IMG/VR virus record: IMGVR_UViG_2534681700_000010
Span: 1-12,125 of that record
DNA: 12,125 bases
Reading direction: 5' to 3' (one strand)
From: a virus
Taxonomy: Duplodnaviria; Heunggongvirae; Uroviricota; Caudoviricetes
Numbering within the stretch: position 1 is the stretch's first letter; each line of letters opens with the position of its first letter. Of the stretch, positions 1 to 12,125 are shown in pieces. Both the position numbers and the translations under genes were made by a program. The notes below the pieces were generated by a model, which was not told the DNA's origin, searched no databases, and was given only the letters and a program-made list of their open reading frames with translations.

Positions 1-996
1 TTACCCTTCAAACTCTTGCTCCACAGAATCATTATCTGCGCATACAAAACCAAGCGCCTCCCCAAATCTCTCACGCGGAAAACCAGATTTGGGCACCCCC
101 ATAGAACTGTATGAACATCCCGGCATATTGGGTTTTTTGTCAAAGAGATCTGCAACCTGGCGGATCCATGTAGAATTTGGCCCGATCATTTTGACCAAAT
201 ACCAAATAATACATATCGCACTATAAAGACGCTCACTCGCAGGGGCATCTATTCTCAGTGAATTGAAGAAGGTTGTATTTGGTATTGGGATTCCAGCATG
301 TTTTCTATTCCAGATTCTGGAATGATGCGCACAACGATTACGCAAAAGATTCAGACATTGCAACCATTTGGTTAATGTTTGTTTATTGTCGATATTTAAT
401 CTTTTAATTATTTTGGCTTGTATACCACCATTCAGCATCGCGTAATATTTTGACATTTGGCCAAAATCCCAGGCTTCAACAACTACCCAAAAAGGGATCT
501 CCTTCCCCTGATTCAAATGCCAAAGAATGCACTCATCCCGGCTATCTTCCAGCTTTTTATCAAGCTTTTTCTGCCATTTTGTAAACGTGCTGGGTTTTCC
601 ATCATTAAGATAACGCTGGTTTATGTAGGATTCCTTTCTGTAAGCAAGCGGATCATATCGCCCTAATTCATGAGCGATAACGGAACGAATATGAATCTCA
701 ATACGTTCCAGGGCATCCATCATTAACATTCGAAGTTTTTTATCAAAAAGATAAAGATCGTATGCCTGCTCGAATGTAGTACCAGGGAGAAATTCATCGC
801 TCCTGAATGAAAGGCCTTCATCATTACAGCGAATGACGCGCGACGTATACCAAAACCCGGACAAGCGATAATAACCAACCTGAGACAGTTTCCTCATGGC
901 TCGCTTACAATCTCTGATTACCATGCCACGACTCAATAAAATCTCAAGCTGCTCTGAATATTCCTTATGTGGCTTTGCGGCAATCATACTCGTCAC
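1..996 (-). CDS. Abi_2-family (AbiD/AbiF-like) abortive-infection protein
   Basis: Complete ORF, stop TAA at 1-3. N-terminal EQLEILLSRGMVI...YYRLSGFWY and C-terminal LRNRCAHHSRIWNR match the conserved motifs of Abi_2 proteins as I recall them. The track start at 996 is GTG; the first ATG is at 987; neither has a strong SD. Hand counts of sampled 60-nt lines give about 25-40% GC, against about 50% in int. Confidence 0.75.
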   Translation of the reverse strand: MTSMIAAKPHKEYSEQLEILLSRGMVIRDCKRAMRKLSQVGYYRLSGFWYTSRVIRCNDEGLSFRSDEFLPGTTFEQAYDLYLFDKKLRMLMMDALERIEIHIRSVIAHELGRYDPLAYRKESYINQRYLNDGKPSTFTKWQKKLDKKLEDSRDECILWHLNQGKEIPFWVVVEAWDFGQMSKYYAMLNGGIQAKIIKRLNIDNKQTLTKWLQCLNLLRNRCAHHSRIWNRKHAGIPIPNTTFFNSLRIDAPASERLYSAICIIWYLVKMIGPNSTWIRQVADLFDKKPNMPGCSYSSMGVPKSGFPRERFGEALGFVCADNDSVEQEFEG

Positions 997-1224
997 ATGT
1001 TTTTGACAATAAAAGGCCCGACCGTGAGACTCACAAACAAAAAAGTTACGGAGAAACAGGGGATCGGGCTCGGTTGCCGCTAAATCTATTCAATTAAAAG
1101 AAGATGTCAATAGGGAAAACGAAAAAAAACAATGCTGATACTGTCATAATTTGAACAAAACCACTATATGTAGTTTTAGTTCATGAGGTTATTCGCTACC
1201 AGATGCGTCAATAGTTTTTGACTA

Positions 1225-1416
1225 TTAATAATCCCTCTTTTCCCATGTTTTTCCATCGGGGTCTTTGCGCTTGTCACTACCTGGTAACTGCTGGTGGCGT
1301 TCCTGTTGCAGCACAACGGAAACAGGCGCTGAACACCTGTTAATTTTGCTTGCTGGTTGTTTGATTCCGGCAATGCTGCGGATCATCTCCAGCAAATCGG
1401 CTTCGGTGATGGTCAT
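1225..1416 (-). CDS. Hypothetical small protein (63 aa)
   Basis: ATG at 1416 preceded by AAGGTG with a 6-nt spacer. No family recognised. Lies between the TTGACAC repeat array and the Abi gene. Confidence 0.5.
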   Translation of the reverse strand: MTITEADLLEMIRSIAGIKQPASKINRCSAPVSVVLQQERHQQLPGSDKRKDPDGKTWEKRDY

Positions 1417-1446
1417 GGTTTACACCTTAGGAAATCTTAGGGGGCT

Positions 1447-1712
1447 GGTTGACACTTTCCGGCTTAAGACCTTAACAAATCTTAACATCGCAGGTTGACA
1501 CACTTGACACTTTTTCGCGAAAAACCTTATCAAACCTTAGCATTTCTAAGCATGGCAACTTGACACTTTTCGCGATTTTTTCGGCTTTTTGACGTGGTAA
1601 ATCTGGCGAAAGGCCAGTAATGGCGGGGCTTACAGCGAGGTTGACACTTTTTTCGCGTTCAGAGTGTAAAGTGTCAACCTGGCAAGCTGCTCAACTTGAC
1701 ACTTTTTGATGT
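1447..1712. repeat. Array of TTGACAC-T(4-6)-CGCG-like repeats: five direct, one inverted, plus a degenerate half-copy
   Basis: Seen directly: TTGACAC at 1449, 1495 (half copy), 1504, 1560, 1641 and 1696 on the plus strand, and inverted GTGTCAA at 1671-1677. Four copies are followed by TTTT(T)(T)CGCG. Irregular spacing (46, 9, 56, 81, 55 bp). Interspersed AACCTTA / CTTAAC short repeats at 1468-1540. Sits immediately 3' of the HTH-protein gene (stop at 1712-1714). Confidence 0.6.
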
Positions 1713-2239
1713 CATTGATGGTCTGATTTTTCCCATTCAGCCAGGGCGTTTAGCCCGGCTTCACTCCATGATTCCAGTTCATCGGGATAATCACCTGCAA
1801 CATAGCAGAGTTCGCAACGCAGCATACGAATTGCCAGCCTGGCATTACCCCGCAAATTGTATTTTTCAAAGTAATGCTGCCCTTCATCATCCTCAAGGCA
1901 GATAGCACCATCATCAAGAAAGTGCACTTCCCAGCCTAATTCCCCGGCTGCATCCTGCACACGCTGCTGTATGTCATCGTCCGTTGCCGGCGCAGGAATT
2001 TTTCCGTCTCTGGCCTTAACTGCTTTCCAGAACTCGCCCCACGTCATTTCCAGCGTTCTTTCTGGCCACATTTCAGAAACTGTGTCTTTTCCCTGTGCTG
2101 CTGGGCTGTTCCGCTGTTCTGTCGCTTCCACATCGATTTTTTTACCGGACATGACCACTTCGCCTTTCTCGATCCAGTCGTAAACTGTCTGGCGGCTTAC
2201 GCCTTTGTGTTTGGCATATTCTGCCTTGCTCATCAGCAT
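1712..2239 (-). CDS. HTH DNA-binding protein (175 aa); possible packaging-redirection (Rpp / small-terminase-like) or regulatory protein
   Basis: N-terminus MSKAEYAKHKGVSRQTVYDWIEKGEV is a classic helix-turn-helix signature. GGTGAG SD-like sequence upstream of ATG 2239. Separated by 6 nt from the stop of the upstream ORF (operon). Functional assignment is inference. Confidence 0.7.
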   Translation of the reverse strand: MLMSKAEYAKHKGVSRQTVYDWIEKGEVVMSGKKIDVEATEQRNSPAAQGKDTVSEMWPERTLEMTWGEFWKAVKARDGKIPAPATDDDIQQRVQDAAGELGWEVHFLDDGAICLEDDEGQHYFEKYNLRGNARLAIRMLRCELCYVAGDYPDELESWSEAGLNALAEWEKSDHQ

Positions 2240-2245
2240 TATGAC

Positions 2246-2917
2246 TCACCCTTCTTTTTCCAGTTGAGCCAGCCGCCCGGATATTTCTTCCAGTTTTTCC
2301 AGGGCTGGCTTGCAGGCCGCATCAATAACGTCCCGGACCATTCCGGCAAGCTGTTCTTCTGCTGTCGGCGTTGTTACTTCCACGCCCGATGGTTTCCCGC
2401 CCTTATCCCAAACACCAAGCGGCACGAGCGCAACGTGATCGATAAGAAATGGCGTACCCTCAATAAAAAAATTGTCCTCGCCCATTACATCAGGAACTTC
2501 AGCCCCACCGGACGCACCACAAAACACAACCGACGGGCTGGTGGATACCTCCCCCCGTGCTTTCTGGATGTAATCGATGATTTCCTGCCCGTAAATCCGG
2601 CATACGCCCCACACCTCGTCACCGCGAATATACGGCAACATGACGGTGCCAATAATGCGCGACCGTTCGCCCACGTCTTCAAGGGTTTTGCTTTCGGGAT
2701 GGTCGATAATGACGGGTACTCCGGCGCAACGTTCCAGGAACTGCGGATTGAGATAAGTTTGCGGTGAACGCCAGACAAATTCTTTTTCTTCGGCGCGGTA
2801 GGCCATTCCGGTTCCTGTGATACGCAGGTTAACCAGCCACATGTTGGAAAACTGATAAGGCGACGGTAGCTGTCCGTCCCGAATCTGCTTCGCCGCCTCA
2901 ATTTCTGTTAAAAGCAT
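2246..2917 (-). CDS. Hypothetical protein (223 aa)
   Basis: Long ORF in the same orientation as its neighbours and tightly packed against the downstream HTH gene. ATG at 2917 has only a weak SD. No family recognised. Confidence 0.65.
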   Translation of the reverse strand: MLLTEIEAAKQIRDGQLPSPYQFSNMWLVNLRITGTGMAYRAEEKEFVWRSPQTYLNPQFLERCAGVPVIIDHPESKTLEDVGERSRIIGTVMLPYIRGDEVWGVCRIYGQEIIDYIQKARGEVSTSPSVVFCGASGGAEVPDVMGEDNFFIEGTPFLIDHVALVPLGVWDKGGKPSGVEVTTPTAEEQLAGMVRDVIDAACKPALEKLEEISGRLAQLEKEG

Positions 2918-2981
2918 AATGTTATCCGGTTATAAGCAATAAGCCCCGCCAAATCCGGCAGGGCTGAACTCAGCACGTTTT

Positions 2982-3566
2982 TCATGCCCCCGCGAGGCTT
3001 GCAACGTTAATTTTGACCAGGCGACGGGGAGGGATTTTGAAGGCGTTCAGCCAGACGTTCGGATCTCCCTGATATTCAGTAATACGACGACCGGCTTCAT
3101 CCATTCTTACGGTTTTACCCAAATGGCCCGGCGTGTTTTCCACGGCCCACTGAGCACTTTCCTGAGCAGCCTTGTAAATCTGATCTTCCAGCACCGCCAG
3201 CGTTGCAGAATCTGAAACGGAACGAATATCCACATCACTGAATTTTTTAGCCAGCTTCTGTGCGCCAATTAATGCACGTTTGCGGTAATCCATCGACTTT
3301 TCACCAGCAAACGGGGCCGGAGCGCGACGCCCCATATTGCTGTATGCGGAATCCGCTTTAGCCTGGGCTTCTGCCAGTGAGGATTCATCTTCGACTGACG
3401 CGACGATGTTTTGATTCGCGTTATCCTCGTCTGCTTTTGTGAAATCCTGTGCGGGGATCGCATTCAGAATTTCGATAATCTCCTGCGGAGTGCTGCCCTG
3501 CGACTCTGACAGAGCGTTAACCACCTCCATCAGTTTTAATCGCAAATCTTCTTTGCTTGCTGGCAT
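2982..3566 (-). CDS. Hypothetical acidic protein (194 aa from ATG 3566)
   Basis: ATG at 3566 preceded by AGGTGG with a 5-nt spacer; the track start at 3575 is GTG. Acidic, Ala/Glu-rich protein with no recognised domain. Confidence 0.7.
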   Translation of the reverse strand: MPASKEDLRLKLMEVVNALSESQGSTPQEIIEILNAIPAQDFTKADEDNANQNIVASVEDESSLAEAQAKADSAYSNMGRRAPAPFAGEKSMDYRKRALIGAQKLAKKFSDVDIRSVSDSATLAVLEDQIYKAAQESAQWAVENTPGHLGKTVRMDEAGRRITEYQGDPNVWLNAFKIPPRRLVKINVASLAGA

Positions 3567-3605
3567 TGTTACCACCTCTCTTTTTTCACCAAAAAATCAC
3601 GACCA

Positions 3606-3779
3606 TCAGGCCGGACGTTCTACGGGATAAAGCGCCCGCTGCATTAAACGCCGGGCGACCTCATGAATGCTCGGAGCAATCCCCAGCGGAGAATTGCGGC
3701 GTTCCTCGTCCTGGATGCGCTGTAATGCTTCAATCTGATCACGAGCGAGTAAAACGGGTTTCACGCTGGCTTTTCTCAT
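3606..3779 (-). CDS. Small protein (57 aa from ATG 3779), possible DNA-binding
   Basis: AGGAGA sits 7 nt upstream of ATG 3779; the track start at 3803 is TTG. First gene of the leftward operon after the terminator cluster. The DNA-binding fold is a guess from the KPVLLARDQIEALQRI pattern. Confidence 0.5.
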   Translation of the reverse strand: MRKASVKPVLLARDQIEALQRIQDEERRNSPLGIAPSIHEVARRLMQRALYPVERPA

Positions 3780-3903
3780 AGTCATATCTCCTGAACAAAA
3801 CAATGATTATGATTGCACAAACTGAAATGACGATCTACATCATTGCAATTTATGAAACAATAACGCATGATGATCGCGTTCTTCCCATTGACTTCAATCA
3901 CCT

Positions 3904-3944
3904 GCAAAAATAAAACCCGCAACACTTCTGGCTGCGGGTTTTTT
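3904..3944. terminator. Bidirectional intrinsic-terminator-like hairpin
   Basis: AACCCGCA (3914-3921) pairs with TGCGGGTT (3933-3940) around an 11-nt loop. Flanked by TTTTTT on the plus strand (3939-3944) and by an A-rich run 3905-3915, which reads TTTTATTTTT on the minus strand. Confidence 0.55.
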
Positions 3945-3952
3945 ACTGGCAC

Positions 3953-3976
3953 AAAAAAGCCGGGAAAAATCCCGGC
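3953..3976 (-). terminator. Intrinsic terminator downstream of the PerC-like gene
   Basis: GCCGGGA (3959-3965) pairs with TCCCGGC (3970-3976) around a 4-nt loop, followed on the minus strand by a T6 run (plus-strand A6 at 3953-3958). Starts 6 nt after the stop at 3982-3984. Confidence 0.6.
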
Positions 3977-3981
3977 CTCCG

Positions 3982-4269
3982 TCACTGACTGCAATTTTTC
4001 GATCCAGGGTATTTCCTGAATGCCTTACCATTGGGCTGATGTAATCCCATCCCGGCATGTGCCCGGCTGATGGTTTCGCGCATCTCCCCGAAATTATCCT
4101 GCCTTGCTGGTGGGCGTGCTGCCTTGCGGATACATTCCGCGCGACGTTTTGCCGCCTGTTCCCGTGCCTTGTCATCATTCGCCAGCATGATGACCTCAGC
4201 CCACCGCGCCGCCGCTCTCCGGTACAGACCACGCGCTTCCAGTGCTTCCGCTTTGCTGTCGTGAATCAT
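3982..4269 (-). CDS. PerC/Pch-like small transcriptional regulator (95 aa), tentative family call
   Basis: ATG at 4269 overlaps the upstream stop (ATGA). The AEALEARGLYRRAAARWAEV motif resembles the E-x-x-G-L-W-R-R-A-A-x-R-W core I recall for PerC-family proteins. The family call is from memory only. Confidence 0.5.
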   Translation of the reverse strand: MIHDSKAEALEARGLYRRAAARWAEVIMLANDDKAREQAAKRRAECIRKAARPPARQDNFGEMRETISRAHAGMGLHQPNGKAFRKYPGSKNCSQ

Positions 4270-4808
4270 GCGCCTGTTTTCTCCTTTGCTGCCCGGCGCT
4301 GACGTTTGCGCTTCTCATTCAGCGCCACCAGCCGCGTTTCTGCGTCCTGTTGTTCCTGTGGTGTCACCTCGCCGCACGGCTGGCCTTTCAGGTCGTAACG
4401 TGCACCACCAGCCATTAAGGCGCGGTAATAGCGCGGAGACTGCGCATAAGATGCCAGCGTCGCACGTAATGCCCCTGGCCCGAATGCCAGCCCCCTGACG
4501 GCGAGATCCTGCATCAGGTCGTCGAATATCCCCACCTTAAGCGGCTTCGGTGCTTCCCGGCTGAATAATTCAGGCCACAACTCAGTGAGGCGGTTAACGC
4601 GCCTGCGGTTTTTGCGCTGGCGCTTGGTCATATGCCGCCACGGTGTCGCCCCTGTGGGCTTCTGCTGCGCTTTCTGGTTACCGGGCATCACTTTATGCGC
4701 CGACGTGGTTTTATCCTGCTCCTGTGCCGCCTGCGTCGTTTTCTGCGGCGTGCCATAAATGCCTTTCGGTTTTCTGTTAATGGTCAGCTTAGTCATGCTT
4801 TGCCCCAT
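4266..4808 (-). CDS. ProQ/FinO-domain protein (RNA-chaperone-like), 180 aa
   Basis: PLKVGIFDDL...LRATLASYAQSPRYYRALMAGGARYDLKGQPCGEV aligns by eye to the FinO-like domain of E. coli ProQ (PLKIGIFQDL...[35 protein letters not shown]). Basic, low-complexity N-terminus. Start ATG at 4808 or 4796; both have weak SDs. Confidence 0.7.
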   Translation of the reverse strand: MGQSMTKLTINRKPKGIYGTPQKTTQAAQEQDKTTSAHKVMPGNQKAQQKPTGATPWRHMTKRQRKNRRRVNRLTELWPELFSREAPKPLKVGIFDDLMQDLAVRGLAFGPGALRATLASYAQSPRYYRALMAGGARYDLKGQPCGEVTPQEQQDAETRLVALNEKRKRQRRAAKEKTGA

Positions 4809-4814
4809 CGTTAC

Positions 4815-5152
4815 AACTGTCTACCAACTGTCTACCGATATAATTGATTGATTTATTTAATGTTATTAACTCATAACAAAAAAACAATCTGCAAACTGTC
4901 TACTAACTGTCTACCGCATTAATACATTGATAATTAATGATTTTTTCAAAGTGGTAGACAGAGTAGACAGTTAAAAGAGAAATTTTAAAAATGAACCCTT
5001 AACTATCTGTTTTTATATACCCCCCGTGGTTTAGGAATATAGAAACAACTGTCTACTCTCTACCACATTTAAAAATATCTATATAATTCAATGACTTAGC
5101 CGGTAGATAGTTGGTAGAGGGTTAAGTATTACTGTCTACCAACCGTCTACCT
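4815..5152. repeat. Putative replication origin: AACTGTCTACC iterons in both orientations around AT-rich tracts
   Basis: Direct copies at 4815-4825, 4826-4836, 4894-4904, 4905-4915, 5047-5057, 5131-5140 and 5141-5152. Inverted copies (GGTAGACAG / AGTAGACAG) at 4953-4961 and 4962-4970. Degenerate copies at 5001-5010 and 5102-5119. Very AT-rich spacers. Lies immediately 3' of the primase/helicase gene (ends 5179). Confidence 0.7.
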
Positions 5153-5178
5153 TTACGTTTCAGCTTATAAATTTCGTA

Positions 5179-6984
5179 TTATGTTCTGTCGTTAATCCCT
5201 GTTGCTGCTGGCAACCAGCCATCAGCATCATCATCTAACAGAACATTTGTTATCACTCGCCCTTTATCTGGGCCTTTAGTGCATTTAGCCCGCTTATACT
5301 CCTTTCCGTATTCCGCCATAGCACCCGGCATATCAGTGCCAAAGCGTTTCAGTGATACTGGTTTTCCCAGGCCATGCGCTGACATATAGGCTAAATAAGC
5401 ATGATACAGATATCGTCTCGGGCTAAATGGCACTATTCCCGCATTGCCCACCATCATTCCTTCACATTTAACCAACGACATCAGATAGCCGCAAAAGTCC
5501 ACCAGTGAATCACCCTCGCGTTTTATCACCAGAGCCTCTTCTGATTTCTGCTGCTCATATAACAGACGTCTGGCTTCATCCTGGTCAGAAAAACGAGTAA
5601 GCAGGTGGCGAATCACTACCGCCAGTTCGCATTCTATCTTTTCCGCCAGCATGGGATCGCGTTCGTTCTCCGGTACGACCTCAGAGAAATTAAATATCAC
5701 CCTACGACGCGAGATCCCCCCGCTTCGGTCACTGAATGACATGGCGTTATTGTTTACCGCAAGCACTACTGCCGGAATACGTGTGGAGTAGGGGGCTTTA
5801 TGTTTCGGGTCAATTGCCACCTTGTCGCCGCCAGTAATTGCCTTAATTCCTGCACCATCGCCAGCGTAGCGAGTCATATCCGGCATGATAATCAGCGAAA
5901 AGCCAACTACTAACGCGCGTTCCCTTGCGTCTTCCAGCGCCTTCATGCTTGCCGATACTGTGTTGGCCTTACCCGCCAGCATGGTACAAATCTCAGCCAT
6001 CACACTTTTACCGCTTCCGCCTGGGCCTGTTACCTCAAGGAATAACTGCCAGTCGTACCGGTTCGCCAGTACCATGAATAATGCCGCCAGTACGCGATCA
6101 GCTTTACGATCATTATCTGCCACCGAACGACGCAGCCACTTCCAGAAATTCGGCGCATGTGTTGCCAGCGTTTCCCCCTCTGCTGGCGGGCTGAACGGTA
6201 ATTCACTGGCATTTAACAACCAGTCATTTTTGTTATGCTCCCGAAAATTTCCCGTCCGGGTATCAAATACCCCGTTACTGAATCCAATAAGATTCCTGTC
6301 TGCCCCGCCCATAACAGGCAGGCTCAATTTCATTGTGTCTACGGCAAATTTAATGGCGTTTTGCGAATAACTGATTCCAGCATCAATAAAAATCTTCGCC
6401 ATAGACCGCTGGAGTTCCTTATCAGATACAGGCACCCAGACAATTCCGTTGTAATGGTGAACTACATCAGAATCATCATTTATAGCCAGTGCTCTTCCAT
6501 AATATTCAAGTAACACTTCCCCTCTCTGGCTGGCTCCCATCTGATTTAGTGCTGGCCTGGGTAGGTCAATATTTTTTGTGGTTAATTTCATCGCTGAAAC
6601 TTCCCCACTCTCTGCCTGTTCGCGGATCCGTTGCAGGTAATCGCGCCAGTTCTCCGGCTCCCGGTCGGTGATACCTTTGTATAATTTCGCCTCCTGTACG
6701 CCAGCCAGCGCCAGTTTTTCAGCGATAGCGTTGATCTGGATTGGCTCTATCTCCCCCGCAAGATAGACACGTGCAAAGCGGCGTTTCTCGTCAATAATGC
6801 GGATATTCACCAGGTCTGCCAGTTGCTTCGGCCCCAGGTAAACAGGTGGCACGTTATCGCCGTGTTTTCGTCCTTCGCTTTCAATCCAGTGTTGAGCATG
6901 GGCGTAAGCATCCGTCCCGGCAAAAATGATTACCTCGGTGAATTTATCCTTCGGCTGATATTTTAAATTCGGTGCGTTTTTCAC
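5179..6984 (-). CDS. Primase/helicase replication protein (P4-alpha / D5-like, SF3 helicase P-loop), 601 aa
   Basis: Walker A GPGGSGKS present, with a typical phage/plasmid primase C-terminal architecture. GTG start at 6984 overlaps the upstream stop (GTGA) and is preceded by GGGAGGT with a 5-nt spacer. The N-terminal region has no obvious toprim motif by eye. Confidence 0.9.
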   Translation of the reverse strand: MKNAPNLKYQPKDKFTEVIIFAGTDAYAHAQHWIESEGRKHGDNVPPVYLGPKQLADLVNIRIIDEKRRFARVYLAGEIEPIQINAIAEKLALAGVQEAKLYKGITDREPENWRDYLQRIREQAESGEVSAMKLTTKNIDLPRPALNQMGASQRGEVLLEYYGRALAINDDSDVVHHYNGIVWVPVSDKELQRSMAKIFIDAGISYSQNAIKFAVDTMKLSLPVMGGADRNLIGFSNGVFDTRTGNFREHNKNDWLLNASELPFSPPAEGETLATHAPNFWKWLRRSVADNDRKADRVLAALFMVLANRYDWQLFLEVTGPGGSGKSVMAEICTMLAGKANTVSASMKALEDARERALVVGFSLIIMPDMTRYAGDGAGIKAITGGDKVAIDPKHKAPYSTRIPAVVLAVNNNAMSFSDRSGGISRRRVIFNFSEVVPENERDPMLAEKIECELAVVIRHLLTRFSDQDEARRLLYEQQKSEEALVIKREGDSLVDFCGYLMSLVKCEGMMVGNAGIVPFSPRRYLYHAYLAYMSAHGLGKPVSLKRFGTDMPGAMAEYGKEYKRAKCTKGPDKGRVITNVLLDDDADGWLPAATGINDRT

Positions 6985-7271
6985 TTCTTACCTCCCGCAA
7001 CCAACATTGCCCGGATTTTTTTAATATTCGTGGCTGCACGTCTTGCCACTGCCTGTTGTTTGTTTTCAACCAGAATAAAATCACGCTCAAACTGACGGCG
7101 CGGCATTACGCAGTCATATTCGTAAGCCTCACGGCGGTAGGTGATATTGCCTGGCGTAACGTGACGAATAACCACTCGTCCCCCACGTCTGGTGTCGCGG
7201 TAAATATCGCCGTGTCTGATTTCAGGTCGAGCGGGGCCGCTGGCAGTAAAGCCAGAATTTTTCTTTTTCAT
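6981..7271 (-). CDS. Hypothetical basic protein (96 aa)
   Basis: ATG at 7271 with AGGAG upstream. Stop overlaps the primase GTG start. No family recognised. Confidence 0.6.
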   Translation of the reverse strand: MKKKNSGFTASGPARPEIRHGDIYRDTRRGGRVVIRHVTPGNITYRREAYEYDCVMPRRQFERDFILVENKQQAVARRAATNIKKIRAMLVAGGKK

Positions 7272-7277
7272 GGTTTT

Positions 7278-7643
7278 TTACTCCTGCGTCTTGCTCTGAA
7301 TTACCTGATAACCGCAACTGGTCAGCAATTCGATAAATTCCGGCAGTGTTCCGAAACAGCAATTATCACGCAGCCGTTCGCGGGATACTTCAACGCCGTT
7401 TTCGTAGTGACTCACCATGCGTCCGGTAAAATGCAGATCATCATCGTGATGGCACGTTGACGGCTTAATCAGTCGCGCACGTTCTGCCAGCTCCAGCAAT
7501 GCTTCAACACTTCCGGCAATTGCACCATCCGGCAGGTGGTAATTACGCACTATGCGCCCGTTCTCCACATGGACCAGTAGCTGCCCGGTAAATTTCTCGT
7601 CAAACTGAATGCGGTTAAGGTCGGTAAGTGACAGGTTAATCAT
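7278..7643 (-). CDS. Hypothetical protein (121 aa)
   Basis: ATG at 7643 preceded by AGGAGG with a 6-nt spacer. Start overlaps the stop of the upstream small ORF (ATGATTAA). Confidence 0.65.
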   Translation of the reverse strand: MINLSLTDLNRIQFDEKFTGQLLVHVENGRIVRNYHLPDGAIAGSVEALLELAERARLIKPSTCHHDDDLHFTGRMVSHYENGVEVSRERLRDNCCFGTLPEFIELLTSCGYQVIQSKTQE

Positions 7644-7839
7644 GGCGTACCTCCTGACGAATACGGGCGGCGAATACCATCACGCAGCCATCAGGAGATT
7701 GCTGGCGTGCTTCCTGTTCGCTGGTGGCCTCGATGTGAATCACGCGCGGTTGTGCCGTGCTCAGAGCGATAAAACGCCAGATGTATTTATTCAGGTTGTG
7801 CGAGTCCCGCCCTTGCGGGTGTGTGGTATGATTTCTCAT
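7636..7839 (-). CDS. Hypothetical small protein (67 aa), first gene of the primase operon
   Basis: Internal ATG at 7839 of the long track ORF, preceded by GAGGT. Its stop overlaps the next start. Upstream of this point the same reading frame has antisense-like composition. Confidence 0.5.
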   Translation of the reverse strand: MRNHTTHPQGRDSHNLNKYIWRFIALSTAQPRVIHIEATSEQEARQQSPDGCVMVFAARIRQEVRHD

Positions 7840-7905
7840 AGCTACCTCGATAATCTTGCTATCGTTGGTGGTTAGAAGCCCTGCGAGTGGTAACGACACT
7901 TGCGG

Positions 7906-7992
7906 GGCTTTGCCTTTAAGGTGCAAGTCACCTTTGAGGGTTATGCTACTTTTAGGTGACTTGCACTTCAAGCCTTTTTTTATTTTTTTTTC
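7906..7992 (+). promoter_or_regulatory. Large hairpin (perfect 12-bp inverted repeat inside an extended stem) followed by a T7-A-T9 tract
   Basis: GTGCAAGTCACC (7921-7932) and GGTGACTTGCAC (7955-7966) are perfect reverse complements. Outer GGCTT (7906-7910) pairs with AAGCC (7970-7974). T-tract at 7975-7991. Sits between the divergent RHH-like gene and the primase operon start. Confidence 0.5.
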
Positions 7993-8032
7993 TACGTATA
8001 CTGAACGCCACCTAACAGTAAGGAGGCCAGTA

Positions 8033-8212
8033 ATGCCAACGGGTACAACCAACAACAAATCACAACAAAAAACGGCTAGAATCCCTCTAGAAGTTTTAAG
8101 CGAAATGAATTTGGTCAAAGAGGAAAACGAAACAGACGCGCAGTTTATCGTTACAGCCATGCGTGGCGAGATCAAACGCCGCCAGCGCCGCAAGGCCAAA
8201 GAACAGGAGTAA
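8033..8212 (+). CDS. Small ribbon-helix-helix-like DNA-binding protein (59 aa); candidate repressor
   Basis: TAAGGAGG ends 6 nt before ATG 8033. TATACT (-10-like) at 7997-8002. Protein is hydrophilic with common E. coli codons; TARIPLEVLSEMNLV looks like an RHH beta-strand plus helix. Conflicts with the 402-aa minus-strand track ORF, which I judge antisense here. Confidence 0.55.
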   Translation: MPTGTTNNKSQQKTARIPLEVLSEMNLVKEENETDAQFIVTAMRGEIKRRQRRKAKEQE

Positions 8213-8269
8213 CCATCACCAGCGCCGTGGTGTGAGGAACTACGGTGCATCGTTTTACAGGGCAGCGCC

Positions 8270-8449
8270 ATGACCAACAAAGAATCAACCAAAACACCAT
8301 CACCAACTCGTAAGAGACGACGCAAAAATATAGCGCATGAACATGAATCAGAAAGATTCGCACCTTGTTCGTTTGCTCTTGAGAAATTCCTTAAAGAGCA
8401 CAGGAAAAAGCTCTCGTTGCAAACCTTGGAACGAACCAAATCTGACTGA
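8270..8449 (+). CDS. Possible small basic protein (59 aa), not in the ORF track
   Basis: ATG 8270 to TGA 8447-8449, translated by hand as MTNKESTKTPSPTRKRRRKNIAHEHESERFAPCSFALEKFLKEHRKKLSLQTLERTKSD. Weak SD and several rare codons (AGA, CGA, ATA, AGG). Confidence 0.3.
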   Translation: MTNKESTKTPSPTRKRRRKNIAHEHESERFAPCSFALEKFLKEHRKKLSLQTLERTKSD

Positions 8450-8653
8450 TCACATTGCCCACCAGCCGCAAATGTGGCATTGTTGGTGATGCGTTCAAGT
8501 ATGTAGCTTTTCCACTGGCGGCTCTCTGCGGTCGCCTTTGTTTTATCCAGAACGAAATCAGACATCAGATTGATCAGCACCTGGCGACCTGACAAAATCG
8601 CATCAGTCGCGCCACCAGCAAAATTTTTTGCTTTCCGGACAGCGTGGCCAACG

Positions 8654-8672
8654 ATATTTTGCAGCAAAATAT
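8654..8672. promoter_or_regulatory. Perfect 19-bp palindrome ATATTTTGC-A-GCAAAATAT
   Basis: Read directly from the sequence: 9-bp arms around a single central base. Lies in the unresolved region between the antirepressor gene and the small plus-strand ORFs. Confidence 0.35.
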
Positions 8673-8836
8673 TCTGCATTTCTGGCGTGCTGTGGCGACG
8701 GTGATCAGCGCCTTCACATTGAACGAACTTGTCGCTAAAATTCACCCACATAGCAAACATCGCGGTGCTGTAGGTAATTCGTTCACAAAGGCGCTCCGGC
8801 AACGGGGCGCTTTCTCTTTTTGTAACGGTCAGAGCG

Positions 8837-9637
8837 TTACACATGGCTGTTTTCCTCCATGCGACGGGCTAACCAACGCTGCGAAAGACGAATTAATTCA
8901 GCCTTCCGCTGGTGGTAGTCCTGGCCTAACTCAATCAGCGTGATATTGCTCTGCTCAAGGTAAGAAAGGTGCTCAAGCTGCAACGTGCTCATGTGGTCGC
9001 GTGGTTCGCCTGTAATGCCGTTCGCCAGTGCCCACTGTTTTGCAGTCATGCCACCCAGCACGATACGCGCCAGCATGTTCGCTTCCGTGGTGTAGTGGTG
9101 CTGGAGTGTGTTTTTACCCAGTTCAGCCCGGTACGCCTCCAGCGCGGCACACATTGGCTTAAAGTAGCTGGCAACTGTGATACGGGCTTTCAGTTCCCGG
9201 CGTAACGCTGCGGAACGAACAGGCGCAACCTTGTGTAGCTCCTCCTCGCATTTGATAAAGTACTGGCGAACGGCGCGGCCCTGTTCGGTACGTTCGACCA
9301 TCGCCAGTTCTTTCGCCATGTTCACTGTGATGATGTACTCAAGAGCGGTTTGCTGGCGAGATTTTGCGCTCACCGGATCGGGTCGGCTCAAATATTCAAC
9401 AACCTCATAATCCACGCCTTCCGTGAACCCGTATTCTTCAATGCGCCCCTTGATCCACGAACGGAAAACGCGCCCTACACCTAACGCCTTATGTAACGCT
9501 CTGGCGCTAACAATAGTGGTTTCACTCCCGCCAATAACGCCGGAAATAATCGGGATAATTTCGCCGAAATTTTGCAGATTCTGGTTTTCAGGCCGAACGA
9601 AGCCCCGCCCCTGTACGGGCGTTTTTGGAAATTTCAT
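8837..9637 (-). CDS. Phage antirepressor, AntA-domain protein (266 aa)
   Basis: ITVNMAKELAMVERTEQGRAVRQYFIKCEE and the preceding IPIISGVIGGSETTIVSARALHKALGV match AntA/AntB-type N-terminal antirepressor domains. ATG 9637 preceded by AGGAG with a 5-nt spacer. Confidence 0.85.
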   Translation of the reverse strand: MKFPKTPVQGRGFVRPENQNLQNFGEIIPIISGVIGGSETTIVSARALHKALGVGRVFRSWIKGRIEEYGFTEGVDYEVVEYLSRPDPVSAKSRQQTALEYIITVNMAKELAMVERTEQGRAVRQYFIKCEEELHKVAPVRSAALRRELKARITVASYFKPMCAALEAYRAELGKNTLQHHYTTEANMLARIVLGGMTAKQWALANGITGEPRDHMSTLQLEHLSYLEQSNITLIELGQDYHQRKAELIRLSQRWLARRMEENSHV

Positions 9638-9714
9638 AAAAACTCCTGCTATCGAATTAAGTTACTTTTATTTGCTGGTGGATAGCTGGGGGCAATAGCC
9701 CCGTAGCCATTTAA

Positions 9715-9912
9715 TCAGGTAGCTGTTCCGCGTGATTCCGCAATACGCTGATTAATCCACTCGTCAATTTCACTCTCAACGAAAGCAATAGCTCGCGAGC
9801 CAATTTTTACAGGTTTAGGAAAACGCCCTTGGGCAATGAGTTTATAGATCCATGCCCTTCCATACCCTGTACGGCGCATGGTTTCTGGCATACGAATTAA
9901 AGATTGTGACAT
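9715..9912 (-). CDS. alpA: AlpA-family transcriptional regulator / excisionase-like protein (65 aa from ATG 9912)
   Basis: MRRTGYGRAWIYKLIAQGRFPKPVKIGSRAIAFVESEIDEWI matches the AlpA motif pattern. GGGAGA lies 8 nt upstream of ATG 9912. The track's longer version (start 9981) is probably an N-terminal over-extension. Confidence 0.85.
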   Translation of the reverse strand: MSQSLIRMPETMRRTGYGRAWIYKLIAQGRFPKPVKIGSRAIAFVESEIDEWINQRIAESRGTAT

Positions 9913-10026
9913 GATAATCGTCTCCCGTTGTTTATTGATGCCTACGGGAGACATTGAAGCAGGTAAGACATTGGATATCACCGCAATTGCGGTGAATGAT
10001 ACCGCAATTGCGGTATAGGACTACAA

Positions 10027-10782
10027 CTACGATTTAATTGATTTATTGGCTTCAGCAAACTTTGCTTCCAGCGTTCTTGAACTCATCCCCGGCTTACCTT
10101 CAAAATGCCCCAATAAATTACTAATAATAGAGCTTTGATTTTCGAATACAGATTGCTTAATACCAGCAGGTGAACGCCCTAACATTAGAAAAAGCAACCC
10201 TCCAATAATGTTTAAATATGTTGTTTCAGAACGTTGGTCAATGTTTTGCACGGAGTTATCAACCATTCGTCGTAGTGAATCACGTTCCCCTTGTAATTCG
10301 GAAATTTCATTTTTCTGCTGTTGAAAAGTCTTCATAGCATTATCTAAGCGAATATTAAGACGTTTGTTTTCAGCCTGAAGAGTTTGATATGCCTCGACTG
10401 TAATTCCAGCATGTAACTGCTGCTCAACAGCATCAAAAAGGAAAGCTGGTTTTTGGTTGGGATAGTTTTTTGACATCCATGATTTCAGATCGGAATGACG
10501 GACGGTTAAACGGTGCTTAGCAACCTGTTCTCCAGGTTGAACAGTTTTACCATCACGACCATAAGGAATTTCACAATTATGGATTGCATCTAAAATTTTC
10601 TCAGCATTAACACGCAAGCAAGGCCATTGAGGGAACATTCCAACGCTAGGTAAAACTCCATCTCCCACTCGCTCCAATATTAAAACTTCATGAGCAATTA
10701 AATTACACCAACGTAGCGCCGCTTCAATTGGAGTGTAATATGCCTTTTCAAGAGAACTACAGCTTTTTGAATTGTAAGTCAC
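10027..10782 (-). CDS. Hypothetical protein (251 aa) with central coiled-coil and one hydrophobic helix; AT-rich accessory gene
   Basis: GTG start at 10782 preceded by GAGGT; the first in-frame ATG is codon 49. Heptad-like segment LQAENKRLNIRLDNAMKTFQQQKNEISELQGERDSLRRMV followed by YLNIIGGLLFLMLG. Hand counts on two sampled 60-nt lines give about 33% and 42% GC, against about 52% in int. Confidence 0.7.
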   Translation of the reverse strand: MTYNSKSCSSLEKAYYTPIEAALRWCNLIAHEVLILERVGDGVLPSVGMFPQWPCLRVNAEKILDAIHNCEIPYGRDGKTVQPGEQVAKHRLTVRHSDLKSWMSKNYPNQKPAFLFDAVEQQLHAGITVEAYQTLQAENKRLNIRLDNAMKTFQQQKNEISELQGERDSLRRMVDNSVQNIDQRSETTYLNIIGGLLFLMLGRSPAGIKQSVFENQSSIISNLLGHFEGKPGMSSRTLEAKFAEANKSIKS

Positions 10783-10910
10783 TCTGTGCTACCTCGCACC
10801 CTCTGTAAAAGTGGCTGTGCCAGCCCGCAGAGGTGTACGGGTTTTCAGGAGCGACCCTAGACACAGCCTTTTCTTAATCGCTCAAAGTCTACTACTGTAT
10901 ACTCAACCAG

Positions 10911-12125
10911 TCACCCGCATTTTCCGAACTCACCATGCACCACATTTCCGCCATGCTCGAGCGAATCCATATAGTCGGCATACCACTGGAGCATCTCCCG
11001 GCGACCATCCAGATATTGCGCATGGTTGTATGTGCCACGAATTGAGTTTTTATCGACGTGTGCGAGCTGCGTCTCTATCCACGCGGTGTTATAGCCCTGC
11101 TCATGCAAAATGGTGCTCATGGTGTGCCGGAATCCATGACCAGTAACGCGCCCGGCATAGCCGATACGACGAATGAGCACATTCATCGCCATTTCACTCA
11201 TTGGCTTACTGTGGTGAATACGACCGGGGAAAATAAACTGATACTGGCCTGTCATGTTTTTTAACTGCTCCAGTATTTTTATCGCCTGTTCTGGTAATGG
11301 CACACAATGCGGACGGCGCATCTTCATTCGTTCTTTAGGCACTTCCCACAAACGATTATCAAAATCGATCTCCTGCCATTCTGCCTGCCGTAATTCCCCG
11401 GGTCTGACACCTGTCAGAATTAATAGCCGCATTGCCAGTTTGACGATCTGGCTTCCGGTGTACGTATTAAAAACGCGGAAAAATTCCGGCAGTTCGTCGG
11501 CCTTCAAATAGGCGTAATGCTCTTTTTTATGTGGAGCAAATGCGCTCACCAGGTCAGGGGCTGGATTATATTCGGCGCGTCCGGTGATGATTGCGTACCG
11601 GAACACCTCGCCGCATCGCTGGCGAACCTTACGCAATTTTTCAGTCGCACCACGGTCATTAAGACGGGAAAGAACCGCCAGCAATTCCATCGGCTTAATT
11701 TCTGCGATCGGCCTACCGCCAATGTACGGAAAAACATCTTTTTCAAACGTCTCGATCATTTCCTCGGCGTATGACGATGACCACCTGTCGATCCGCTTTT
11801 CGTACCATTCGCGAGCAATACCCTCAAAAGTATTGCCAAATTTGCTCGCCTGTTCTCGCTTTTGGGCTTTTCTGGCCTCACTTGGATTTATACCACCAGC
11901 AAGAAGCCTTTTAGCCTCATCCCTTGCCGCCCTGGCATCAGACAGAGACACATCAGGGTACACACCCAACGACAACATTTTGGGCTTTCCTGCAAACCTG
12001 TAGCGCAGTCGCCACCCTTTCGAACCGTTCGGCTCAATGAGCAACGAAAGCCCGTTACCGTCATTGAGTGTATAAGCCTTTTCTTTCGGCTTCGCGCGCC
12101 TGATGGCAAGGTCTGAAAGCAGCAT
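10911..12125 (-). CDS. int: Tyrosine site-specific integrase, P4/IntA family
   Basis: Close by-eye match to E. coli IntA-type integrases: N-terminal LSDLAIRRAKPKEKAY...DGNGLSLLI arm-binding region and C-terminal HGFRHT...RGTYNHAQY catalytic region. The ATG falls on the last three bases of the window, so the true start may be slightly upstream and outside it. Confidence 0.95.
   Translation of the reverse strand: MLLSDLAIRRAKPKEKAYTLNDGNGLSLLIEPNGSKGWRLRYRFAGKPKMLSLGVYPDVSLSDARAARDEAKRLLAGGINPSEARKAQKREQASKFGNTFEGIAREWYEKRIDRWSSSYAEEMIETFEKDVFPYIGGRPIAEIKPMELLAVLSRLNDRGATEKLRKVRQRCGEVFRYAIITGRAEYNPAPDLVSAFAPHKKEHYAYLKADELPEFFRVFNTYTGSQIVKLAMRLLILTGVRPGELRQAEWQEIDFDNRLWEVPKERMKMRRPHCVPLPEQAIKILEQLKNMTGQYQFIFPGRIHHSKPMSEMAMNVLIRRIGYAGRVTGHGFRHTMSTILHEQGYNTAWIETQLAHVDKNSIRGTYNHAQYLDGRREMLQWYADYMDSLEHGGNVVHGEFGKCG

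Follow-up and report, generated by a model that had tools for sequence, protein, structure and literature searches.

What does a gene for a FinO-family RNA chaperone do when it lies beside the replication origin of a phage satellite? The question is raised by a stretch of 12,125 nucleotides (positions 1 to 12,125 of the IMG/VR record IMGVR_UViG_2534681700_000010, hereafter the window), which by its gene content is a phage satellite, a phage-inducible chromosomal island (PICI) of Escherichia coli. An initial annotation had noted a ProQ/FinO-domain protein encoded at 4266-4808, next to the origin, and had suggested RNA-based control of replication or of helper-phage transcripts. We find that this gene (the FinO gene below) belongs to the ProQ/FinO family and that enterobacterial PICIs carry it as optional cargo, in a constant slot behind the replicase gene.

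The longest open reading frame (ORF) of the FinO gene runs from 4808 to 4266 on the minus strand and encodes 180 amino acids. Its real start is probably the second ATG, at 4796 (MTKLTINRKPKG...), and not the one at 4808, since the homologues and the RefSeq proteins begin there and a GGGG Shine-Dalgarno sequence is found 6 nt upstream. The domain call of the initial annotation was borne out by a profile search and by matches to structures. The product matches Pfam family PF04352 (ProQ/FINO) with 87 bits (cut-off 27; E 1e-24), its residues 68-172 corresponding to model positions 5-108/109, and the same domain was carried by 120/120 of the homologues listed. Solved structures matched by sequence (phmmer) include the ProQ N-terminal domain (5nb9, E 1.6e-12), FinO (1dvo, 4e-11), NMB1681 and RocC. 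An AlphaFold2 model built on 34 homologues contains the helical bowl and the two-stranded beta hairpin of the ProQ/FinO fold, with helices at residues 58-73, 90-101, 107-118, 121-129 and 146-175 and strands at 132-134 and 140-143; the predicted local distance difference test (pLDDT) exceeds 90 at residues 58-165 and falls below 50 at residues 1-50. The best PDB matches of this model in Foldseek were FinO 1dvo (root-mean-square deviation 2.0 Å, 102 columns), RocC 7rgt/7rgu (template-modelling score up to 0.84 on the target) and NMB1681, with a probability of 1.00 for FinO, RocC, NMB1681 and Lpp1663.

The putative RNA pocket is also present. K88, K91, R115, R126, Y127 and R137 align with R32, K35, R58, R69, Y70 and R80 of E. 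coli ProQ, which we take, in this numbering, to be RNA-binding residues. K91, Y127 and R137 are invariant in 13 homologues (down to 55% identity), and R115 is kept in 11 of the 13. Members of the ProQ/FinO family are small (14-27 kDa), basic proteins (PMC9977716), a range which the product fits at 19.9 kDa and pI 10.7. The gene is under purifying selection, with a median dN/dS of 0.19 against 29 diverged copies. Judged from its sequence, it is a genuine and intact gene for a ProQ/FinO-family RNA-binding protein, the binding of RNA being assigned through the family. Truncated or frameshifted copies do occur in unrelated, non-PICI islands (L006, L007, L016-L018), as would be expected if the gene were a decaying remnant without current function. 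For the copy in the window this explanation is effectively refuted by the intact ORF, the low dN/dS and the invariant pocket residues, and many lineages and genera retain the gene at full length.

The protein shares 30-34% identity with FinO, FopA, PcnR and ProQ, and scores below the cut-offs of the NCBIfam models for FinO (NF010317, 67 bits against a cut-off of 136) and ProQ (NF003434, 61 bits against 127). On both grounds we assign it to a separate, satellite-associated and island-borne clade. A second, profile-based homologue search returned close family members only and did not reach the named FinO/FopA clusters. FinO of F-like (IncF) plasmids has the same domain and fold, is also carried by a mobile element, and has the same layout of a basic disordered N-terminal extension, a FinO domain and a long C-terminal helix; with its own basic N-terminal extension and a long basic helix after the domain, the satellite protein has an overall FinO-like rather than ProQ-like layout. 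However, identity is only about 30%, the IncF gene ends the tra operon whereas the satellite gene follows a replication origin, and no FinP/traJ pair was matched in the window (Rfam, E ≤ 1). FinO proper was rejected on the score for NF010317, the missing FinP match and the location in chromosomal islands rather than on a conjugative plasmid.

With chromosomal ProQ of E. coli and Salmonella the protein shares an N-terminal FinO domain (34% identical, with equivalents of R32/K35/R58/R69/Y70/R80 kept), and the rule by which terminator hairpins are recognized may be common to both. In contrast to ProQ, it lacks the linker and the Tudor-like domain (PF04352 is its sole Pfam match), terminating 8 residues past the C-terminal helix of the FinO domain, and it is encoded by an accessory, island-borne gene whereas proQ is a core gene. 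ProQ proper was rejected on the score for NF003434 and the missing C-terminal Tudor-like domain. FopA (YafB, from IncI1 plasmid pCol1B9) and PcnR (IncI2), whose sequences were taken from plasmid records, are likewise FinO-domain proteins of mobile elements, encoded a few kb from a rep gene in those records. They act through a structured rep-leader RNA to restrain the copy number of their element (PMC9977716; PMC8053102), and would offer the best functional analogy for a FinO-domain gene beside a replicon. The protein was not placed in their IncI plasmid clade: the similarity (31% to FopA, 30% to PcnR) is confined to the domain, and the N-terminal regions are unrelated. The replicons differ too, a RepZ/RepA leader-peptide/pseudoknot system on the plasmids against a primase/helicase and an iteron origin in the satellite, and no Inc-like antisense RNA was found in the window (Rfam, E ≤ 1).

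The main genes of the window all lie on the minus strand, in an order typical of Gram-negative PICIs. The closest complete genomes are annotated with an identical gene order and with integration beside a tRNA-Gly gene. The features that define a PICI are present, namely int, alpA, a pri/rep gene with an iteron origin, a length of ~10-15 kb, no lysis or tail genes, and a gene for packaging redirection. The model island EcCICFT073 (L166:17931-28655; NC_004431 1377930-1388654) has the same backbone and gene order (int, alpA, ylcI, icd, DUF4222, primase, 85-aa ORF, ssb, perC, capsid c1499), without a FinO gene.

The origin contains nine copies of the iteron AACTGTCTAC in 4815-5150, against 0.38 expected by chance, arranged in two sets on either side of AT-rich DNA, with repeat families D1-D3 and inverted pairs. 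It fills the gap between the stop of the primase/helicase gene (5179) and the start of the FinO gene, with 17 nt between the first iteron and the FinO start codon, so that the location beside the origin given by the initial annotation holds. The same layout of direct and inverted iterons has been described for PICI origins (PMC6092414, Fig. 2 legend). In many relatives an ssb gene separates the origin from the FinO gene. A promoter and terminator scan predicted neither element between the primase and FinO genes, and on this basis the FinO gene is probably co-transcribed with the replicase through the origin. At its other end, the stop codon (4268..4266) overlaps the ATG of perC (4269..4267) as ATGA, which suggests that the two genes are translationally coupled.

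Of 5,426 complete E. coli genomes, 1,184 contain homologues by blastn, at 1,670 places and up to nine per genome; all these places are chromosomal and none is on a plasmid. Relatives above 55% identity, among the homologues listed, are all chromosomal and belong to Escherichia, Shigella, Salmonella and Citrobacter. If a few chromosomal pieces misfiled as plasmids are set aside, plasmid relatives reach at most 45% identity in the domain. A phage collection gave six weak matches to the protein, and a scan of a contig collection holding one genome per species gave two loci.

The surroundings of the gene were then compared in ~160 loci drawn from RefSeq genomes, an assembly index and IMG/VR, with genes labelled by tblastn using a reference set. 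Every PICI-like locus has the same slot, in the order DUF4222, replicase, an optional 85-aa ORF, an optional SSB, FinO and PerC. As variants, FinO is followed by an 82-aa ORF and capsid genes in capsid-forming PICIs, or by a 138-aa ORF and PerC, and in a few loci PerC precedes FinO. The slot is constant in classical and capsid-forming PICIs and is found with four kinds of replicase: a D5_N/DUF5906 primase, another primase-like protein, a RepA helicase and a DUF927 protein. This constant place beside replicase, origin and ssb could be expected of a replication accessory working with SSB and primase, for example by binding RNA primers or the 3′ ends of R-loops at the origin. We regard such a role as highly improbable: no FinO-domain protein is known to act in this way, half of the islands that have the same replicases and ssb lack the gene, as does the replication-proficient EcCICFT073, and a cloned pri-ori segment of EcCICFT073 suffices for replication (PMC6092414). 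In one relative (ETEC6335, L001:9281-12210), a RepA-helicase replication module stands in place of most of the P4-type primase, and a C-terminal primase fragment, the origin, FinO and PerC remain. The arrangement shows replicase swapping upstream of a constant origin-FinO-PerC block.

Within its slot the FinO gene is optional. It is present in 36 of 71 islands and absent from 35, these being the DUF4222-anchored islands with enough downstream sequence, a sample that leans to relatives of the window. In the other islands the slot holds perC or nothing. PerC accompanies FinO, adjacent to it in most loci, and is present in 33/36 islands with the gene against 10/35 without (Fisher 3e-8, with no correction for relatedness). 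Comparison of L138 with L129 and L150 defines the FinO cassette as the bare ORF, a 550-bp insertion that extends from the ssb stop up to the next gene's ribosome-binding site. An RNA gene travelling with FinO was excluded by these insertion boundaries and by an 18-mer enrichment that, among capsid-forming islands, picked essentially the FinO gene alone. The gene does not belong to the core gene set of PICIs, being found in 36/71 islands and lacking from EcCICFT073; it is optional cargo.

How might the protein act? We put a probability of about 0.4 on the reading that it acts on transcripts of the satellite's own backbone, damping or timing the early/replication operon. This is rated the most likely because FinO, FopA and PcnR restrain their own element and because pcnR and fopA are located near rep. 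The F plasmid shows that an element may lose a modulator of this kind and still keep its antisense system. All three characterized FinO proteins of mobile elements repress the replication or transfer of their own element via structured RNAs that the element encodes (PMC9977716; PMC8053102). FinO domains bind a helix with a single-stranded 3′-OH tail, usually a terminator, and shield the RNA from RNases, and flanking basic segments aid RNA-RNA pairing (PMC9977716). By analogy with this family, the concave face and the Tyr127/Arg137 pocket would grip an RNA hairpin with a single-stranded 3′-OH tail, typically an intrinsic terminator. As for FinO, FopA, PcnR, RocC and ProQ, binding would make the RNA less accessible to RNases, and its pairing with a complementary RNA would be promoted by the basic extensions at the N and C termini. 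Candidate RNAs would be the convergent or antisense transcripts of the antA-ylcI-icd region and the 3′ end of the finO-perC message with its tandem terminators. Its effect after induction would be to damp or time expression of the early/replication operon, comparable to the restraint that FinO, FopA and PcnR place on plasmid transfer or copy number, and the protein would be a modulator that is not essential to the satellite cycle.

Two candidate ligands are found inside the element, the plus-strand unit at 8713-8822 and the tandem terminators after perC. The first belongs to the antisense arrangement that the initial annotation had proposed at the leader of the primase operon. Such an arrangement exists: ylcI and orf59 are directed against the main operon, their divergent promoter region contains a 15-bp inverted repeat (about 7925-7970), and at 8713-8741 a plus-strand promoter-like site (10/12 match; with a perfect TATAAT in L001 and L002) precedes a terminator hairpin at 8788-8813. 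The hexamers and the terminator of this unit are conserved, whereas the spacer between them diverges, which suggests a ~75-nt RNA that would be antisense to the 5′ portion of the ORF starting at 8844 on the minus strand. The link of the arrangement to FinO was weakened, and as a FinO-specific partner it was rejected, because ylcI/orf59, Icd and the terminator hairpin occur in islands with and without the gene. In two other FinO-carrying islands (L003, L008 from O157:H7), the slot immediately upstream of the Icd-like gene that heads the replication operon contains isrK and a C4-type antisense RNA, which makes RNA control of the operon downstream of this control slot plausible in this satellite family. 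These RNAs recall the RNA-based immunity of P1/P7 (C4) and P4 (CI) and the IsrK-type RNAs of prophages. However, the window has the divergent ylcI/orf59 unit instead, with no C4 match, and no requirement for a FinO protein is known for the C4/CI/IsrK systems, which also occur without one.

The tandem terminators that follow perC, which have A-tract/U-tract flanks and are predicted to fold very stably (-38.1 kcal/mol, z -5.0), would form a candidate cis ligand, of the hairpin and 3′ U-tail shape that FinO domains bind. As a universal FinO ligand they were rejected, being restricted to the window-type subgroup. Over the whole window, Rfam (E ≤ 1) gave no match to FinP, Inc/CopA-like or C4 RNAs, only the int-alpA RNA and weak matches at chance level, among them isrK with 20.6 bits over the perC terminators. 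Binding there could also serve another end, since FinO on the 3′ hairpins of the pri-finO-perC transcript would block 3′ exonucleases and raise the output of PerC and replicase. Protection of mRNA 3′ ends is documented for ProQ, as with cspE mRNA (PMC9977716), and two strong terminators 4-80 nt after perC together with the FinO-PerC coupling would suit it. We nevertheless regard this stabilization of the own message as improbable, because this 3′ untranslated region is found only in 26 window-type loci, other FinO-carrying islands differing downstream or having capsid genes, and because nearly any intrinsic terminator fits the binding rule, so that the match is unspecific.

Several results weigh against control of the satellite's own operon. 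No RNA partner of FinO was identified around a cassette that is a bare ORF, and the 18-mer comparison of capsid-forming islands with and without FinO revealed no sizeable partner sequence that co-travels with the gene. The candidate ligands do not follow the gene either: Icd is present in 32/32 islands with FinO and 32/32 without, YlcI/orf59 in 31/32 and 28/32, and the 8788-8813 hairpin in 66/92 and 17/35 loci. The tandem terminators downstream of perC, for their part, are confined to the 26 loci of the window-type subgroup. About half of the sampled relatives lack the gene. So does the experimentally characterized EcCICFT073, where perC directly follows ssb; excision and replication of this island take place all the same, and its transfer reaches 1e5-1e6 per ml (PMC6092414, Table 1). 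Because the gene is an optional bare ORF and EcCICFT073 transfers without it, FinO is not obligatory for the control of replication or transfer, and would be at most a modulator. Finally, PerC, the regulator that shares the slot, acts on host virulence genes (PMC11773190), which fits cargo directed at the host or helper equally well.

Such cargo would act in trans: FinO, often with PerC, would reprogram host or helper-phage RNAs and not those of the satellite. ProQ/Hfq-type ligands, among them terminator-bearing small RNAs, prophage antisense RNAs and FinP of resident F-like plasmids, are candidate targets, which FinO could stabilize, sequester or out-compete, tilting helper development or host physiology in favour of the satellite. 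We hold this tentatively, as nearly as likely as self-regulation, because of the optional bare cassette, the slot shared with perC and the perC association. The absence of a cis partner travelling with the gene, the presence of up to nine copies per genome and the action of PICI PerC homologues on promoters of the host locus of enterocyte effacement (PMC11773190; PMC6092414) point the same way. Recognition by FinO domains is moreover largely independent of sequence and can cross between systems, as when transfer of F is repressed by ProQ of Neisseria or when foreign FinO/RocC is hijacked by RepX and RocRp (PMC9977716). On the other side, the characterized members from mobile elements are all self-regulators, and the gene lies within an induction-dependent replication operon with no independent minus-strand promoter predicted in the origin, so that it may be silent in the lysogen. 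A more specific proposal appears unlikely to us. Here the swappable FinO cassette, devoid of a cognate RNA gene, would act in trans on antisense or late-control RNAs of the helper, on host ProQ/Hfq ligands or on FinP of co-resident F plasmids, and would form with PerC a two-layer (transcriptional and post-transcriptional) module that hijacks gene expression of the helper or host.

Table 1. Features of the window, with positions counted from its first nucleotide.
Feature	Position	Strand	Remarks
FinO/ProQ-family gene	4266..4796	-	176 aa, 19.9 kDa, pI 10.7; conserved start ATG 4796 (probable)
Ribosome-binding region (GGGGCAAAGC) ahead of ATG 4796	4797..4806	-	from sequence; L138 shows the same GGGG-N6-ATG
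FinO/ProQ domain	4293..4607	-	residues 68-172 (180-aa numbering); Pfam envelope
Basic N-terminal extension, predicted disordered	4644..4793	-	~50 residues; pLDDT <50; 10 K+R against 2 D+E; alignment to the NCBIfam FinO model begins at residue 35
Satellite replication origin, AACTGTCTAC iterons	4813..5150	.	11-bp spacing; direct and inverted sets flanking AT-rich DNA
Tyrosine integrase	12125..10911	-	from gene content of the window
int-alpA RNA motif	10867..10799	-	Rfam RF02996, 49.8 bits against gathering score 35.8
251-aa ORF	after int-alpA RNA motif, before AlpA	-	
AlpA		-	Pfam Phage_AlpA
AntA-type antirepressor (antA)	between AlpA and control region	-	
Candidate antisense RNA unit	8713..8822	+	promoter-like TTCACA-17-TAAAAT, then 11-bp GC-rich terminator 8788-8813
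Control region	8840-7840		between antA and Icd-like gene
59-aa ORF (orf59)	8270..8449	+	two-gene unit with ylcI, between antA and Icd-like gene, opposite to main operon
ylcI/ynfO (DUF3950)	8033..8212	+	phrog_949; strong Shine-Dalgarno
Icd-like gene	7839..7636	-	phrog_6196
121-aa ORF	between Icd-like gene and DUF4222	-	
DUF4222 gene	7271..6981	-	
P4-type primase / D5-family helicase (replicase)	5179..6984	-	Pfam D5_N, DUF5906, Pox_D5; TIGR01613; upstream of FinO gene, same operon
PerC-family regulator	3982..4269	-	Pfam PF06069, 111.6 bits
Two tandem intrinsic-terminator hairpins ending the finO-perC transcript	3903..3978	-	terminator scan; 4-80 nt after perC
Second unit: 65-aa ORF, two protease/scaffold-like ORFs, TerS-like helix-turn-helix protein	after the terminators		
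Abi_2 (abortive-infection-like) gene	1-996	-	Pfam, 183 bits; far end of island

Other features of the island were noted in the course of this analysis. Before the replication operon, two alternative control cassettes, ylcI/orf59 or isrK and C4 (the latter at L003:4242-4430 and L008:11187-11376), occupy one position in this family. In islands of the L010 type, a 54-nt stretch over the right half of the 8788-8813 hairpin lies between a convergent Bro-N gene and ylcI/orf59, and may be the terminator of the latter unit. The whole control region is covered by a stop-free ORF of 402 aa (7636-8844, minus strand), antisense to both ylcI and orf59. The first ~135 aa of this ORF (with a strong GGAGG Shine-Dalgarno sequence and a start overlapping the antA stop) and its last 67 aa (the Icd-like gene) are gene-like, the middle looks non-coding, and the whole could be a fusion or else a shadow frame. 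In every replicon type there is an overlap between the DUF4222 gene and the start of the replicase gene (window 7240-7271, minus strand, and 73 unique relatives). Codons 6-11 of DUF4222 form an invariant hairpin or palindrome, CTGGC-N6-GCCAG, without synonymous variation in the stem, whereas neighbouring codons vary freely, and a conserved ribosome-binding region (GGAGAATAAAAACC) lies upstream. This hairpin may be a control element for replicase expression; as a leader target in the style of PcnR it was uninformative, being present also in islands without FinO and showing no covariation.

Elsewhere in the island, the int-alpA RNA motif lies between the integrase stop and the next ORF, and consists of a closed multi-stem structure followed by UUUUA and by AGGG from the next gene's ribosome-binding site; it is also found in L002, L004 and L009. 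Just upstream of alpA, two copies of the palindrome ACCGCAATTGCGGT (9981-10014), 20 bp apart from start to start, look like an operator for a controller of the master activator. In the packaging unit, a 197-aa ORF and a DUF2213 ORF (2246-3575, minus strand) match parts 402-544 and 115-328 of one 545-aa PHROG family (phrog_6216), with a weak match to a head-maturation protease, and look like a split or modular protease/scaffold-like pair. The Abi_2 gene, absent from most relatives, is probably anti-phage defence cargo.

Proteins of this kind already bear the RefSeq product name 'ProQ/FINO family protein'. In a comparative genomic study of 2026, the accessory genes given for one Enterobacter cloacae PICI include a ProQ/FinO-like chaperone, with no functional work (PMC13612085), and a review of the family mentions phage- or plasmid-derived FinO homologues in chromosomes in general terms only (PMC9977716). 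PerC is discussed in the PICI literature that we consulted (PMC11773190, PMC6092414), and FinO is not. As the initial annotation had supposed, no characterized role of a FinO-family protein in a phage satellite turned up in the literature. The domain call is known at the level of annotation; the constant slot across replicon types, the optional bare ORF and the absence of a linked RNA are new. The gene has probably escaped experimental attention partly because the model island EcCICFT073 lacks it.

Among bacterial RNA chaperones, the FinO-domain proteins make up the third major class, and the studied members from mobile elements (FinO, FopA, PcnR) all set how aggressively their element replicates or spreads. 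The island-borne copies that we examined, including those of capsid-forming PICIs and of O157:H7 islands, form a distinct clade. Islands that are otherwise similar but naturally have or lack the bare ORF provide a genetic comparison ready for use. If the protein acts in trans as one module with PerC, it would be the first strategy based on an RNA chaperone in the conflict between satellites and helpers. Should FinO tune the replication of the satellite or act on RNAs of helper or host, satellite-helper biology would gain a post-transcriptional layer, and the set of RNA-binding proteins in many pathogenic E. coli would grow by several FinO-domain members.

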